From: Aulosira sp. ZfuVER01 | Lineage (GTDB): Bacteria; Cyanobacteriota; Cyanobacteriia; Cyanobacteriales; Nostocaceae | Direction of reading: 5' to 3' | DNA: 64,000 bases | Assembly: GCA_034530615.2 (NCBI GenBank) | Contig: JAVRCV020000030.1 | Span: 8,858 to 72,857 of the forward strand | The notes under the pieces: model-generated | What the model was told of the DNA's origin: nothing | What the model saw: only the letters and a program-made list of their open reading frames with translations | Databases searched by the model: none | In this document: positions 48,261 through 54,184 of the stretch, piece by piece | How positions within the stretch are numbered: position 1 is the first letter of the stretch | Layout of the letters: every line of letters begins with the position of its first letter | Program-made: the position numbers and the translations under genes

Positions 48261-49114
48261 TATGAACTAATCCTCTCGATTACAAAGGGCATTGCAAGAC
48301 GATAAATGACCCAAGCTACTAGCAATCCTAATATTGCAATTAGACTTGCTATCCAAAATCCTTGCGGGTCTGATATAACACCTGTTGTTGCTAATTCTCG
48401 TGTCGTTACTAACAGTGGAGTAACAGGATTTAGCTTCACAATACTGCCAAATGCTCCATCGCTGGGAACTGGATAAACAACTGGTGTAAGGAACAACCAA
48501 AATCCAGTAATCAATGTTAATCCTTTGGTAACATCCTGGTATAAAGCACCCATTGGGGATAACAATAAACCTATAAATGTTCCTAGCAATATTAAATGTA
48601 TTAATGCTACTGGCGCTAGAATTACACTTAAAGTTACGGGAATTTTGAACCAGATAAATAAGCCTACAATTAATATGAGCTTGATTCCAAAGTTAAAAAA
48701 TACTTCTCCTAATTTGGCAACAATCAATGCTTCGTGAGGGAAGTTAATTCTTGTCAACATTGCTTTAGCTGCTGTTACTGCTTGTACTGGGCCATTTAAT
48801 GCTTCAATAAAAGTCTGCCACAGCGACATACTGAACATAACATAAGCTGCATAGGGTAATTCTGTATTACCAATGTTGACAATACCATTACTTTTCGCAA
48901 GTGTAAAACCAGCTGCTGTAATTACTGGCGGGATAAATGCCCAGAAAATTCCTAGTAACGATTGACGGTATTGAGCACTGATATCACGAATTAACAACCG
49001 CCAAGCTAATTCTCGCGATGCTAGTAAATCCCGCCCCATTTCTCGAAATAATTGTAGCGGATGTCTTATTCGACTTTCAGGTCGATACACAACTCTGGTT
49101 TTTTTCAGCATCAT
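48260..49114 (-). CDS. wzm: Polysaccharide ABC exporter permease
   Basis: RDISAQYRQSLLGIFWAF, FLTPVVYP and LNPV motifs; its stop codon overlaps the wzt start. Confidence 0.93.
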   Translation of the reverse strand: MMLKKTRVVYRPESRIRHPLQLFREMGRDLLASRELAWRLLIRDISAQYRQSLLGIFWAFIPPVITAAGFTLAKSNGIVNIGNTELPYAAYVMFSMSLWQTFIEALNGPVQAVTAAKAMLTRINFPHEALIVAKLGEVFFNFGIKLILIVGLFIWFKIPVTLSVILAPVALIHLILLGTFIGLLLSPMGALYQDVTKGLTLITGFWLFLTPVVYPVPSDGAFGSIVKLNPVTPLLVTTRELATTGVISDPQGFWIASLIAILGLLVAWVIYRLAMPFVIERISS

Positions 49115-49358
49115 TACAGATTCATAATTTATGGGGCAAATTAATATTTATCTCCTGCCAGAAAGTAAAATAGCTTTCTGCACCTGTGAGAAGGTGTTCC
49201 GATAATGTAATGAGATTTGATGTTTAAGTTGATCTGGTTACATTAGCTTGATTGCAAATCACTTGCAACTTCTAGGCTTTGTACTATTTACAGAAAAATA
49301 TGTCTTTTGGCAGTTACGCAAACATGCTTTCTCAATCTCTAGTACGATTAACGAGGAC

Positions 49359-50129
49359 TTATGCAACACGGTTTGATGAAAGTAGTTGCTTGGTTGCTAA
49401 CCACATAAAAGGTGGAATTGTTTTAATATAACGACTCCAAAGACGGCGCGGTTCTTGAATCCAGCGATAAAACCATTCAAATCCTAATTCTCTAACTATG
49501 CGGGGTGCGCGCTTATGGATTCCTGCATAAACTGGGAAAACTCCTCCCATCCCTAGCATGACTGCCTGAATTTTACCTTTATGCTGCGCTATCCAATTTT
49601 CTTGTTTGGGACAACCTAGAGATACAAATACTAAACCCGCACCACTAGAATTAACTTTATTAATCAGTTCTGCATCTTCACTCTCAGTCAATGGACGAAA
49701 GGGCAAAGGTTCCATCGCTGCTATTTTCAGCTTCGGAAATTCTTGCTCTAGCCTTTTTCGCATTCTAGAAAGGATTTCTGTTTGCGAACCAAGAAAGAAA
49801 ACACTCACATTTTGTATTTGAGCTAGCTGACATAATCCTTGTAAGATATCCATCCCTGCTACGCGATCTTGGTAACGCGCACCCATCCGCCGCATCATCC
49901 AAACAAGAGGCATACCATCAGGAGTGACGACATCTGCATTTTGTAATACACTTGCAAACTCTGGATTCCAGTGAGCCTCCATCAGCATGTGTACGTTAGC
50001 TACGCATACTGTTCTACTTTCGCGGGCGATCGCCCATCTCATTATTGTTTGGATCTGATCTTCAAAGCGTAAAGCAGTAATGGGAAAATCCAGAACTTTT
50101 TGTTTAGGCAGAAATGTTATTTCTCCCAT
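49359..50129 (-). CDS. WecB/TagA/CpsF-family glycosyltransferase (GT26)
   Basis: VANVH, PDGMPLVW, RVAGMD, LGCPKQE, RAP and EWFYRWIQEPRRLW motifs. ATG at 50129 behind a GGAGG Shine-Dalgarno. Confidence 0.93.
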   Translation of the reverse strand: MGEITFLPKQKVLDFPITALRFEDQIQTIMRWAIARESRTVCVANVHMLMEAHWNPEFASVLQNADVVTPDGMPLVWMMRRMGARYQDRVAGMDILQGLCQLAQIQNVSVFFLGSQTEILSRMRKRLEQEFPKLKIAAMEPLPFRPLTESEDAELINKVNSSGAGLVFVSLGCPKQENWIAQHKGKIQAVMLGMGGVFPVYAGIHKRAPRIVRELGFEWFYRWIQEPRRLWSRYIKTIPPFMWLATKQLLSSNRVA

Positions 50130-50832
50130 CAATCCCTCCTGTGTCAAAGACAAAAATCATCAACATCAACTAGTACATTGCCAACTGTCTAACAATTAGG
50201 TGGTACTATTGCTGACTTTTTTCTAAGCTTTTGGCATGGTCTGACTCACACACATGGAGATGCAATAGTTTTATCAGTAAATTTCTGGGAACCCTGGTAT
50301 TTTTCAAACATCTGACCACCGTATATTAGTTTACAAGCTGAACTGAGGCTTTTCCCAAACGTGTGTACAAACTTCATGGTTACTTCATAATTAGTTTGTC
50401 TCTTCTTCATGCAATCTTCATGATTATTGTAAATCTACTTAACTTAATAAAATTTTGTAGTAACTATATAGTTATTTCGTGAAGTAAAAATATAAACAGT
50501 CAAGCTACTACCATCTGATATGCAAAAGTATGAAATCAAAAGCTTTGCTCAAAATAAAAGTAGAAACAGATGAAATACTGGTTAATGAGTATACTTCGTA
50601 TAAAAGTAGATATTTGTGAATGGCATTAAATCTGGTTGTTTACCTAATAATTATTAGACGATTAACCATTTCTGTTTACAGAAGCGTTGATACTAAGTAA
50701 TGAGTTGCTATAGATAAACCAAGATGTAGTTGTAAGCATCTGTGGTTCCAAACTCTCAAGTTATTTTTTGTACAGAAATTAAAATCAAATTACGATGGGA
50801 CCCAAAGACGTTATTGCATAGTGAGAGTTCCT

Positions 50833-50937
50833 CTAGTCCAAGAAGTCAGAAGGCAGATGGCAGAAGGAAAAAAAGATTTTTTTATAGGCTTTTTAAGCTT
50901 TTGCAACTGGATAGTTATATCCACTGCGCTGTACTAG
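50833..50937. repeat. CTAG-bounded dispersed repeat element
   Basis: Runs from CTAGT through a heptamer-like tract (CAGAAGG CAGATGG CAGAAGG) to GCTGTACTAG. The same 3' end occurs at 61172-61181. Confidence 0.45.
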
Positions 50938-51118
50938 TCTTTAGCCGTGAGACTTCTGATAGTATAGGCAGAAGGGAAAAAGCTGATTTTATAGGCTTTA
51001 CAACTAAATAATTATTTTGCCTATCTCCAATAGTGGCTGTCATCTGTCTTAACGGTGATTCATTATATTTTTTAATTTAAGGCTCTATCTTATCGAAAAT
51101 TACTAATATTTTTTGATT

Positions 51119-51385
51119 CTATAAATAGACTTTAGTACTTATACAAATTCTGATGTTTTTAGATAGAAAAATTTGTTTTTTCACTTGAAACAAATAAAAA
51201 AGGAGAAGATGAATTTTATCTTCTCCCTTGCCCTTATTTTTAATATCGTCTGCTTTTTTCTCTTCCTTCAGCCTTTGTCGTAGCATCTGCCTTTGTTTTT
51301 TAAGTTGCCGCTTTCTGGCTGAACCACCTTTACCTTTATCGTTCCTTCCCTCTCTGCGAGGAGATTCCCATCTTTTTAATCTCAT
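51119..51385 (-). CDS. Small basic protein; candidate alternative ribosome-rescue factor (ArfA/ArfT/BrfA-like)
   Basis: 88 codons; 23 K/R among the first 57 residues; NDKGKGGSARKR motif; intrinsic terminator within codons 54-64; hydrophobic tail. The function is inferred. Confidence 0.65.
   Translation of the reverse strand: MRLKRWESPRREGRNDKGKGGSARKRQLKKQRQMLRQRLKEEKKADDIKNKGKGEDKIHLLLFYLFQVKKQIFLSKNIRICISTKVYL
51192..51229 (-). terminator. Intragenic intrinsic terminator
   Basis: The mRNA reads AAG-GGAGAAGAU-AAAAUUC-AUCUUCUCC-UUUUUUAUUU: a perfect 9-bp stem, a 7-nt loop and a U-tract, on the same strand as the ORF. Confidence 0.8.
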
Positions 51386-51846
51386 AATTTTTTGCTTTTC
51401 TTAAACTTGACAACTTGATAAAGCAGGTATCCTAGCTTATATACATATAATAGCGCTTTTTCAGCTGCGATCGCTTGTTACATGAAGAAATATTAATAAA
51501 TAAGTGAGGATGCAATGTGAGTTTGCTTCAGTATAAATACTGAAACTAACTTATGCATATTTTACTGATGCATAGAGTGTATTTATTTATAATTCTAGTA
51601 TAAATAAATACATTTTTTCCAGCAATGTTAATGTTTAGGGTTTACAGGTTTGGAAGATTGCATTAAAAAAATAGACGCAGTTTCCTGCTTAATAGTTTCT
51701 ATGAGTTCAAGAAAATAATATTTTCCAGCTACTAAGGTAACATTTAGTATTTATAGCCTTGCTCAAAAGGTATTCTCTATGGACATATAGCCACTTGCTA
51801 GAGAAAGCTGAGAAGTCAAGATTTCTGATAACTATACTTTTTACAG

Positions 51847-51930
51847 TGGGCAGGAGGAGAATCGAACTCCTATGACCGCAAGGTCGCCACATTTTGAGTG
51901 TGGTGCGTCTACCAGTTTCGCCACCCGCCC
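51847..51930 (-). tRNA. tRNA-Leu (CAA)
   Basis: Reverse complement GGGCGGGTGGCGAAACTGGTAGACGCACCACACTCAAAATGTGGCGACCTTGCGGTCATAGGAGTTCGATTCTCCTCCTGCCCA; anticodon CAA, long variable arm. Confidence 0.97.
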
Positions 51931-52068
51931 TTAGATGCAACTTTACTAATATACTCTATTCAAGAGTTTTGTGGCAAGGTATTGATAATTATTTCTGAAT
52001 TATTGCTAATTTAGTACATAAGTATTAATTTTGGGGATGGCGCTTTGCATTGGTGGGCTAGGAGAAAT

Positions 52069-53154
52069 TTAAGATTTCACTAAAGAAGGATCAATATCCT
52101 CTAGCTGGGCACAACCGCTAAGTGCCATAGCCAAGCTTAACTCACCTTGTAGCAGCGATATTATATGAGATACACCTGCTTTTCCCGCTACCGCTAGTCC
52201 CCATAAAACAGGCCGCCCGATGAGTACAGCTTTTGCTCCTAATGCTAGGGCTTTGAGAATATCTGTACCTCGGCGGATACCTCCATCTAACAACACTTCG
52301 GCTTTACCATCTACAGCAGCGACAATCTCTGCTAGAGCGTCTAAAGATGCGATCGCACCATCTAATTGTCTGCCACCATGATTAGAAACAACTATTGCTT
52401 TAACTCCGCACTCGACTGCACGCACAGCATCATCTCCGCGCAAAATCCCTTTAATTACCAAAGGTAAAGGGCAGATAGACTGTAACCATTCCAAATCTTT
52501 CCAAGTTAGCGCTGGGTTTAACTGTTGGGCAAAGTAAGTAAATAACCCAGATTCACCTTGTGCATGGGGAATATCTAGCCCTGAGATAGTTGCGAGATTG
52601 GCCGCGTGTAAGCCTGGTGGTAAGGAAAATTCGTTCCGTTTATCCCGTTCTCTTTGTCCGAGAACAGGAGCATCTACTGTCAGACAAAGCGCTTTGTAAC
52701 CTGCGTTATCGGCTCGTTCGACTAAAGCGCGAGTTAAACCTCTATCTTTGTGGATGTAAAGCTGAAACCATTGCAGAGCATTGGGAAAATTTTGCTGAAT
52801 TGCTGCGACTTCTTCAATAGATTTGGTAGCTAATGTACTTAAAATCATGCCCACACCTGCTGAAGCTGCGGCTGTTGCAGTAGCTATTTCTCCCTCGGGA
52901 TGCGCCAGACATTGAAAAGCCATTGGTGCAATTAGTAAGGGTAGCTCTAGAGGTTGTCCTAATATAGATGTAGTCAAGTTGCGATCGCTCACATCTACTA
53001 GCATCCGCGGTCTTAGTTTTAGGCGTTCAAAAGCAGCGCGGTTATCTCGTAAAGTGATTTCATCCCACGCACCACTGCTGTAGTAATCAAGCGCCATCTG
53101 TGAGAGGTGCTGTTTTGCTAGCTGTTCGTACTCAAAGAGGTTAATCGGTTGCAA
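52069..53154 (-). CDS. FMN-dependent alpha-hydroxy-acid oxidase (lactate/glycolate oxidase family)
   Basis: IAPMAFQ, WFQLY, LTVDAP, SNHGGRQLD, DGGIRRGTD and IGRP motifs. Confidence 0.95.
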   Translation of the reverse strand: MQPINLFEYEQLAKQHLSQMALDYYSSGAWDEITLRDNRAAFERLKLRPRMLVDVSDRNLTTSILGQPLELPLLIAPMAFQCLAHPEGEIATATAAASAGVGMILSTLATKSIEEVAAIQQNFPNALQWFQLYIHKDRGLTRALVERADNAGYKALCLTVDAPVLGQRERDKRNEFSLPPGLHAANLATISGLDIPHAQGESGLFTYFAQQLNPALTWKDLEWLQSICPLPLVIKGILRGDDAVRAVECGVKAIVVSNHGGRQLDGAIASLDALAEIVAAVDGKAEVLLDGGIRRGTDILKALALGAKAVLIGRPVLWGLAVAGKAGVSHIISLLQGELSLAMALSGCAQLEDIDPSLVKS

Positions 53155-53227
53155 GTGATGATTGGATAGGTGGAAAATATTTTTAAGGTCTCACGCAGAG
53201 GCGCAGAGGCGCAAAGAAGAATGTAAC

Positions 53228-54103
53228 TTACCAGTTACGCCATCCACCTTGAGGTTTAGCTTCGGTAGTAGACTGAAGCCCGTGATTGTGCAATAAAGTT
53301 TGATATTCCTTGCTACTTGCCCAACGGTCAATTTCTCGGGCACGGAGGACGGGTACGGGGTGAGTTAGTTGGGCGGTGCGGGCAGCTTTGACCATTTCGC
53401 CAAGTTCTGTCTTACTAATATCATCGTAGGCGCGAGCTTGAGCTACAAAGGCATCAAGATTGAGTTGGGGTGCTAATCTTGGGGAACCACCGGCTAGTTT
53501 CATCAATACTGACATGACAACTTTGGGATTTTGGGTAGCTAGCAAGGCGGCGCGATCGCAGGTAAACTCTGCACAGCGTACCCATTCTAAAAGCTGTGTT
53601 TGTATAGCTTGGGCAATTACAGCTCCCACGTTAGGCAATATTGTTGCTGCTAATACTAATAAATTTACCGGAGTTAGGTAAACGCTGTGGTCACATTTGA
53701 GGTGTCCCAACTCATGGGCAATTACTGCCTGAATTTCTTCTGGGGTGAGGATATCGATGAGGGAGGTATGTAGGACAACAAAAGGTTGCTGACCCCGCAT
53801 AGCAAAGGTATAAGCGTTAGGGGCAGGGTGTTGCCTGACGTACAACTGGGGAGGTTCTATATCTAATACTTTGCAAGCTTCTAACAATAGGTGATGTAAA
53901 TCGGGCAGTTGGTTTTCACCCACTAGAATGCTAGAGGCAATATTTTCTACATAGAAAACCTGCTCTGCCATTGGCCCTAGCCAATTTCGCACCATCATAT
54001 CTAGACCTGGGATCTGCTTAAGAGTTTTAGTAGCTTCCAAGTCTAATGGATGACGAAAAGAATCAGCTTTTAAACCAATTAGCGGCGTTTTTAATAATGA
54101 CAT
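53228..54103 (-). CDS. M48-family zinc metallopeptidase
   Basis: FRHPLD, PNAYT, HELGH, AEFTCDR and THP motifs. Start placed at ATG 54103. Confidence 0.92.
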   Translation of the reverse strand: MSLLKTPLIGLKADSFRHPLDLEATKTLKQIPGLDMMVRNWLGPMAEQVFYVENIASSILVGENQLPDLHHLLLEACKVLDIEPPQLYVRQHPAPNAYTFAMRGQQPFVVLHTSLIDILTPEEIQAVIAHELGHLKCDHSVYLTPVNLLVLAATILPNVGAVIAQAIQTQLLEWVRCAEFTCDRAALLATQNPKVVMSVLMKLAGGSPRLAPQLNLDAFVAQARAYDDISKTELGEMVKAARTAQLTHPVPVLRAREIDRWASSKEYQTLLHNHGLQSTTEAKPQGGWRNW

Positions 54104-54184
54104 ATCGTAACAAGCTTGAAAATAATAGCAATGTGGAATGCTGTTAGTTAAATCAACAGCCCCCAAAGCTAGTATAACGATTTA

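Follow-up and report, generated by a model that had tools for sequence, protein, structure and literature searches.

The small open reading frame (ORF) at positions 51119..51385 of the window, by which we mean the whole 64,000-nucleotide stretch of Aulosira sp. ZfuVER01 DNA analysed here, is a strong candidate for a cyanobacterial analogue of the ribosome-rescue factors ArfA and BrfA. By analogy with those proteins its product would recruit a release factor and be gated by trans-translation, a reading to which we assign a probability of about 0.5. Judged by the sequences of its homologues, the locus is a genuine protein-coding gene, its family being specific to cyanobacteria, and the same sequences lend good support to a non-stop architecture like that of ArfA and BrfA. 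The features concerned, all on the minus strand, are the following.

54166-53228, minus strand: M48 peptidase gene, upstream of tRNA-Leu(CAA) and of the small ORF
53154-52069, minus strand: gene for an FMN-dependent dehydrogenase, between the M48 peptidase gene and tRNA-Leu(CAA)
51846..51930, minus strand: tRNA-Leu(CAA), a conserved neighbour 460 nt upstream of the ORF on the same strand
51119..51385, minus strand: 88-codon ORF from the ORF list (ATG 51385..51383, TAG 51121..51119), encoding a member of an uncatalogued family of small basic proteins
51260..51385, minus strand: conserved core, codons 1-42, from alignment A1 of diverse members
51227..51259, minus strand: variable linker, codons 43-53, unconserved in sequence and length among homologues, with in-frame stops kept out
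51202..51226, minus strand: terminator hairpin within the ORF, codons 54-62, with a 9-bp stem and a 7-nt loop, extendable to 51229..51199
51192..51201, minus strand: U-tract TTTTTTATTT, directly 3' of the hairpin, the two together making up codons 54-65
51119..51191, minus strand: frame past the terminator, about codons 65-88, hydrophobic and ending in TAG, unconserved in homologues
50153-49359, minus strand: gene for a WecG/TagA-family glycosyltransferase, downstream, starting about 965 nt past the small ORF

A preliminary description of this DNA had noted an 88-codon ORF with 23 Lys or Arg among its first 57 residues and the motif NDKGKGGSARKR. The ORF list and a count on the translation (MRLKRWESPRREGRNDKGKGGSARKRQLKKQRQMLRQRLKEEKKADDIKNKGKGEDK IHLLLFYLFQVKKQIFLSKNIRICISTKVYL) bear this out, and GGQ is absent from the protein. 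The same-strand hairpin and U-tract that it placed in frame, 24 codons before the stop, were likewise found at codons 54-65, on the minus strand, which that description had not named; the hairpin reads GGAGAAGAT-AAAATTC-ATCTTCTCC (51226..51202), and codon 54 is the first stem codon. Beyond the U-tract the frame runs on for 24 further codons and switches abruptly, as had been described, to a hydrophobic tail (IHLLLFYLFQV...). Intrinsic terminators usually release RNA 7-9 nt past the stem. From this general behaviour the RNA 3' end would be expected at about 51195..51193 (codons 64-65), and the predicted mRNA would be stop-less, would encode about 63-64 residues and would end 24 codons before the TAG, the tail at 51119..51191 probably lying outside the main transcript.

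In a consensus scan of 49000-54000, the window hairpin was the sole terminator-like site on the minus strand (12 pairs). Folding of the 61-nt stretch around it yields -17.4 kcal/mol (z = -3.93), a value equalled by 0 of 200 shuffles. The scan as a whole returned 4 terminator-like sites, against 4.2 +/- 1.9 in shuffles, so a terminator-like site alone is not above chance. On the 5' side, positions 51386-51410 (minus strand) form an A-rich leader with no strong Shine-Dalgarno sequence evident by eye, and promoter-like matches near the ORF start were at chance level in a pattern scan. Public RNA runs (n = 24) shared at most 0.07 of the sampled words with this strain's locus. Four runs searched at 80% likeness yielded relatives' contigs only, 0 of them covering the region downstream of 51263, and contigs of this kind cannot mark 3' ends.

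Homologues were abundant among cyanobacteria. A six-frame search gave a strong match (E <= 4.8e-13) in 56 of 61 related genomes; they include every one of the 36 further genomes from the same family, and 19 of 24 other families of the order. A word-indexed protein collection contained 1325 relatives at E <= 1; among the 120 listed, which are 64-140 aa long and whose source names, where given, point to the Nostocaceae (Nostoc, Calothrix, Tolypothrix and similar), most are unnamed or 'hypothetical' and one carries another label. When 1.84 billion proteins were searched with profile A1, built on 42 diverse members, 456 cluster representatives reached E <= 0.001, and the 150 representatives listed (59-172 aa) are matched at or near the N-terminus in most cases. 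Within an even sample of the phylum, the gene was present in 114 of 401 genomes, 114/114 of the class Cyanobacteriia, to which the family is confined among the sampled phylum genomes; it occurred in 0 of 29 genomes of one small-genome family and in 2 of 225 across 12 further families of the same sample. Overall, the family is spread over most filamentous and many unicellular cyanobacteria. Two genomes carry a second copy: in one (G003) both copies (L003, L031) are intact, each of 67 codons, and in the other (G006) an intact copy (L004) is accompanied by one (L032) that has stops from codon 27 on and keeps a long hairpin.

Conservation of N-terminal residues and of the terminator, together with a variable tail, had been predicted, and this is the pattern recovered: residues 1-42 are kept, and in-frame hairpins with U-tracts were found at 99 of 104 unique homologous loci. 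The core consensus over residues 1-42 is MRLKRWESPRREGRNDKGrGGSARxRQLKKQxQMLRKKLK. Seventeen A1 columns are invariant (L3, K4, W6, E7, S8, P9, R10, G13, R14, N15, K17, G18, A23, R24, Q27, K30 and L39) and 8 more nearly so. AlphaFold2 on A1 predicted neither helix nor strand for residues 1-20, then a helix spanning residues 21-49, at a mean pLDDT of 77.6 and 85-94 within the helix. Codon-position entropy over 101 loci was 0.54/0.30/1.28, third positions being the most variable; every synonymous codon of the invariant Pro, Gly and Arg residues is in use among the loci; and pairwise comparison of the 101 loci counted 81654 synonymous vs 35240 non-synonymous codon differences. These three patterns indicate selection on the protein and not on the RNA alone.

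The same patterns bear on whether the locus might be a non-coding small RNA in which the ORF is incidental. In its favour, Brenes-Alvarez et al. 2016 list the copy of Nostoc sp. PCC 7120 as a predicted sRNA of 201 nt in Table S3 (chromosome, reverse strand, TSS 179863, end 179662, at the terminator), with homologues in 42 genomes, or 26 in a second homologue count, and 8 dRNA-seq reads in total (PMC4734099). That listed transcript starts 19 nt before the ATG, has an A-rich leader and ends in the hairpin (PMC4734099, Table S3). The same table, however, comments 'putative peptide according to RNAcode', and its row assigns no function and passes over the absence of a stop codon (PMC4734099). Rfam provided no family match either, the hits at 51168-51337 reaching 21-22 bits vs gathering scores of 80 and 175. 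With codon-position pattern and synonymous codon use both pointing to selection on protein, we regard a purely non-coding RNA as highly improbable.

The terminator was followed across 104 unique loci in 102 genomes, out of 156 genomes with a match. These loci were taken from all 58 strong matches of the search in related genomes, the 30 best phylum-sample matches and 20 hand-picked phylum-sample matches (the nine that belong to other orders, plus eleven chosen for a short open frame or because their family was sparsely sampled), with 4 duplicates removed. A hairpin was scored at <= -7.5 kcal/mol with a U-tract within the ORF, the ORF interior being searched first. Recurrence of such a hairpin in frame at 99/104 loci places the terminator of the window beyond chance, with the reservation that the genomes are kin and locus counts are not independent events, although several orders and more than 25 families are represented. 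Measured from the G/C-closed core stem, the stop ends more than 12 nt away in 89 loci, 10-12 nt away in 7 and 8 nt away in 3 (L042, L047 and L099), in which the stop falls at the edge of the U-tract. The stem-to-stop distance ranges over 5-156 nt (median, 52), and the predicted stop-less product over 53-84 codons (median, 63.7). Among the five loci without an in-frame hairpin, L032 is the broken second copy described above, L055 is cut by a contig end, and L057, L107 and L108 end at an ordinary stop after 43, 51 and 50 residues. The preliminary description had named homologues that generally stop before the hairpin as evidence against it; an ordinary early stop without a hairpin occurs at just these 3 of the 104 loci.

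Across 91 distinct hairpins, 6.76 of 7 positions are paired when both arms come from one locus and 77 of the 91 are fully paired, vs 5.0 of 7 positions and 206 of 2000 fully paired when arms are combined across loci; at stem levels 4-7, G-C and A-T alternate and are about equally common. As judged from this arm pairing, the hairpin stems covary among homologues. RNAalifold on a MAFFT alignment of 54 hairpin regions found no structure, given the unequal lengths of stems and loops; the stem-anchored count with its cross-locus control was used instead.

These loci also speak to a simpler possibility, namely that the gene encodes an ordinary small basic protein, that the terminator is leaky or tolerated, perhaps as a relic of a tRNA-Leu unit, without regulatory meaning, and that a read-through or normally terminated product suffices. 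L057, L107 and L108 would work with an ordinary stop, and the three U-tract-edge stops lean the same way. Kinship among the genomes means that the counts overstate independence. Between the conserved block and the point 9 nt beyond the stem, 96 of 99 loci have no stop in frame 0, and frames +1 and +2 are likewise open in 70/99 and 33/99; since the +1 frame is so often open, the open linker is just moderately unusual. Still, early stops in the linker would be expected to be common if residues 1-43 alone mattered, yet across more than 25 families frame 0 stays open to the terminator in those 96 loci, and beyond the U-tract the tails are alike in neither sequence nor length and are unrelated between families. 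We therefore consider a merely tolerated stop-less state improbable and a weaker rival of the non-stop rescue reading than the one discussed below. The 43-residue, ordinarily terminated L057 indicates that the conserved core is the functional unit, and its product is presumably made constitutively. At L057 (G059:C10:161-292), a rimM-like gene begins 19 nt past the stop; a rimM link as functional evidence was dropped, as a genome of the same genus (G249) differs, carrying the usual 65-codon form (L149:2515-2712) in a different context.

Regarding genomic context, a same-strand tRNA-Leu(CAA) lies upstream at 58 of the 104 loci, and in 28 of the 58 its end is 21-84 nt before the ATG. Given this proximity in many loci, the ORF terminator may originally have served to end a tRNA-mRNA unit. 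In two RNA libraries, contigs of relatives run from the tRNA into the 5' portion of the ORF, which proves neither a single transcript nor transcription. At least seven loci without upstream tRNA-Leu (L023, L033, L041, L064, L072, L077 and L088) have a same-strand tRNA-Gln(TTG) about 50-800 nt 3' of the small ORF, so the family tends to sit among tRNA genes. Protein-coding neighbours recur among closer kin, with the WecG/TagA gene downstream at 40 of the 104 loci and the FMN-dependent dehydrogenase and M48 peptidase genes upstream at 32 and 23; the window's gene order over 49359-54166 (minus strand) is accordingly common to 23-40 of 104 loci, mostly close kin. A leader peptide, with a ribosome in the hairpin region deciding whether the terminator forms or transcription reads through to downstream genes, would explain why a terminator lies inside a translated frame and would be compatible with the same-strand WecG/TagA-family gene and with the tRNA-Gln genes downstream. 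Protein-level conservation over 42 residues is nevertheless unexpected for a leader, and the downstream gene is unconserved outside those close kin and in the window lies about 965 nt away; we thus judge leader-type control very unlikely.

Comparison with known families placed the protein in none of them. Pfam gave no match for the window protein or for the 42 A1 members, NCBIfam none for the 3 family members searched, and the ESM Atlas returned unnamed cyanobacterial clusters only, without a named family. A profile search of PDB chains at E <= 10 had Nop14 (E 0.25) as its sole return and no rescue-factor chain. The chains searched presumably include a BrfA-ribosome structure. Membership in the ArfA family was rejected: PF03889 at E <= 10 matched neither the window protein nor any of the 42 A1 members (0/42), BLASTP against the K-12 record of E. 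coli ArfA gave E 0.36, and hhalign assigned a probability of 2.6%, aligning a 15-column stretch (REGRNDKGKGGSARK / RVEKNKKGKGSYMRK) at 53% identity. The motif resemblance is real but far too short, so common descent with ArfA is not shown. Hence the label 'ArfA-like' that had been proposed holds for the non-stop architecture at the sequence level and fails for family membership, homology to ArfA not being detectable. A K-H pair is absent from the A1 consensus and from its invariant columns. Identity with ArfB (NF006718, RF-1 domain) was also rejected, as no GGQ-bearing RF-1 domain was found in the window protein. The tail of the genome's own SmpB, GKGKKLHDKREDLKKRQ, resembles KGKGGSARKRQLKKQRQ by eye; this similarity is not significant (BLASTP E 11, hhalign probability 0.2%) and was set aside.

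To our knowledge, rescue factors that depend on a release factor have been described only in some proteobacteria (ArfA, ArfT) and in Bacillus (BrfA). Full-text literature searches found no description of such a factor in cyanobacteria, and a search with the peptide motif found no relevant paper and one unrelated match; a 2024 survey reports arfA in 0 of 162 cyanobacterial genomes (PMC11633108). Reviews of known systems hold that further small rescue factors probably exist and are hard to find by sequence (PMC8012679, PMC6881298). The closest parallel is BrfA (YqkK) of Bacillus subtilis. The brfA gene has 71 codons and an internal rho-independent terminator, and its product of about 62 residues is seen only without SmpB; BrfA depends on RF2, and its basic C-terminal portion occupies the mRNA channel (PMC6881298). 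The present gene likewise carries a rho-independent terminator in its coding region (88 codons, about 63-64 residues), and both families are small, basic, GGQ-less and lineage-restricted, with a dispensable tail behind the terminator. They differ in that the cyanobacterial family is far wider within its phylum and linked to tRNA-Leu(CAA), its function being a candidate one, and in that it lacks the KH motif; no sequence relation to BrfA emerged from the PDB profile search at E <= 10. The Lys-His motif is shared by BrfA and ArfA (PMC6881298, PMC8012679) and contacts 16S rRNA in the mRNA channel (PMC6881298).

With ArfA, of E. coli and other beta- and gamma-proteobacteria, the family shares the logic of a non-stop mRNA, a hydrophobic tail in the full-length frame and a Lys/Gly-rich stretch (RVEKNKKGKGSYMRK in ArfA, REGRNDKGKGGSARK in the cyanobacterial protein). 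The arfA mRNA is made non-stop at a hairpin, by RNase III cleavage or by transcription termination, and the hydrophobic tail of full-length ArfA renders it unstable (PMC8012679), whereas the cyanobacterial genes carry a canonical terminator with a U-tract and have their motif in the N-terminal half, ahead of a long helix. By description, ArfT of Francisella tularensis is also alike, being a very short, basic peptide that contains a charged helix (PMC6514570): with about 40 aa and use of RF1 or RF2, it is near in size to the 43-residue L057, but in the rescue-factor literature searched we found no non-stop regulation described for it. The C-terminal tails of SmpB and ArfB are basic and fold into a helix inside the empty mRNA channel (PMC8012679); the likeness lies in these basic segments, and the difference in the folded domains that both proteins carry and that are absent here.

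On the preferred reading, that of a release-factor-recruiting back-up, the working part would be a basic peptide of about 42 residues with a non-helical N-terminus, LKRWESPRxxGRNxKGxGG, and then a long Lys/Arg/Gln helix. Transcription would end at the intrinsic terminator inside the reading frame, leaving the mRNA without a stop codon. Ribosomes on non-stop mRNA are substrates of tmRNA-SmpB, and their product is tagged. Ribosomes reaching the mRNA 3' end would thus normally be resolved by tmRNA-SmpB and the product of about 63 residues tagged for degradation; were trans-translation saturated or lost, untagged product would accumulate. By analogy with ArfA and BrfA, it may then bind non-stop ribosomes, its basic segments occupying the vacant mRNA channel and the decoding site, and recruit a class I release factor to free the nascent peptide. 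We infer the RNA 3' end, the tagging, the ribosome binding and the release-factor recruitment alike. The composition of the protein (23 K/R in 57 residues, no GGQ) fits such a role. A predicted complex of the 50 conserved residues (A1) with the genome's own RF2 (A3, 291 residues) scored 0.00 in two control-free runs, a result that weighs neither for nor against the reading.

Several results count against the rescue-factor reading: the lack of similarity to ArfA or to solved chains, the missing KH motif, the missing alternation with ArfB (below), the members with ordinary or U-tract-edge stops (L057, L107, L108; L042, L047, L099) and the mere 8 dRNA-seq reads of the Nostoc 7120 copy (PMC4734099). 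The main rival accepts the non-stop mRNA and its gating by trans-translation and gives the peptide a job other than release-factor recruitment; it could silence or protect ribosomes, take part in rRNA or tRNA processing, or tune the RqcH/MutS2 path when tmRNA is limiting. The evidence for the architecture applies to it equally, and the missing homology and KH motif, the lack of alternation with ArfB, the tRNA gene linked at 58/104 loci and the near-universal RqcH of cyanobacteria (PMC11633108) all suit it. Set against this, the proteins described with a built-in non-stop message in the literature consulted here, ArfA and BrfA, are both release-factor-dependent rescuers (PMC6881298, PMC8012679), and the predicted succession of a basic non-helical segment and a basic helix would fit the channel-binding parts of known factors (PMC6514570). 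We hold another job to be unlikely, if somewhat less so than a tolerated terminator.

With respect to the host, the window's genome contains tmRNA, SmpB, RF1 and RF2. A genome-wide search with PF03889 gave only a 10.7-bit chance hit elsewhere, so ArfA is absent; ArfB is absent as well, the sole matches to NF006718 being sub-threshold ones in the GGQ regions of the two release factors RF1 and RF2, and the only RF-1 domains in the genome are those of RF1, RF2 and a broken RF2 copy. A genome with tmRNA and SmpB and without ArfA or ArfB fits the reading of the gene as a back-up rescue factor. Across 162 cyanobacterial genomes, Table 1 of PMC11633108 counts smpB in 161, ssrA in 155, arfB in 90, arfA in 0 and rqcH in 161; with RqcH in 161/162, a further back-up is not obviously needed. 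In our sample, ArfB occurred in 127 of 401 genomes. In one family (f1), 40 of 45 genomes had the small-ORF gene and 27 had ArfB, and neither was detected in four (G124, G282, G290 and G413), while 29 small genomes had ArfB in 29/29 and the small-ORF gene in 0/29. Alternation of the small-ORF family with ArfB was looked for across the 401 genomes and was not found.

A fuller version of the rescue reading, for which we give slightly less than even odds, is that cyanobacteria would possess their own, fourth unrelated family of release-factor-recruiting peptides, switched on by failure of trans-translation through the in-frame terminator, originally co-transcribed with tRNA-Leu(CAA) and serving as the main back-up to tmRNA in many ArfB-less species, including this one. 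Were the gene's proposed role true, a major phototrophic phylum would have solved non-stop rescue in an independent way, and searching for conserved in-frame terminators would become a general route to rescue factors, the architecture alone having picked out this family. With a sharply defined core of 42 residues, natural ordinary-stop variants and a locus in a model strain (Nostoc PCC 7120, chromosome 179863-179662), the question is directly testable by genetics and by in vitro release.

A further observation concerns the release factors of the genus. Directly upstream of prfB lies a second RF2-like gene, 49-55% identical to RF2 and without GGQ, seen in the window's genome at G000:C68:131452-132306 (locus L091:1435-1851) and in a relative at L129:2794-3642. 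The GGQ site reads ITKWRWNYDNLKSS in the own copy and ITKLLWNCRNRNRPE in the relative's, against ITTSRAGGKGGQNVNK in RF2, and in the relative's copy SPQ replaces the codon-recognition motif SPF. The own copy is broken by 1 TGA and 1 TAG. Of 14 other genomes of the genus, 11 have a second RF2-like match next to prfB, which in 9 of the 11 is free of internal stops, and the gene is a putative catalytically dead RF2 paralogue kept beside prfB.
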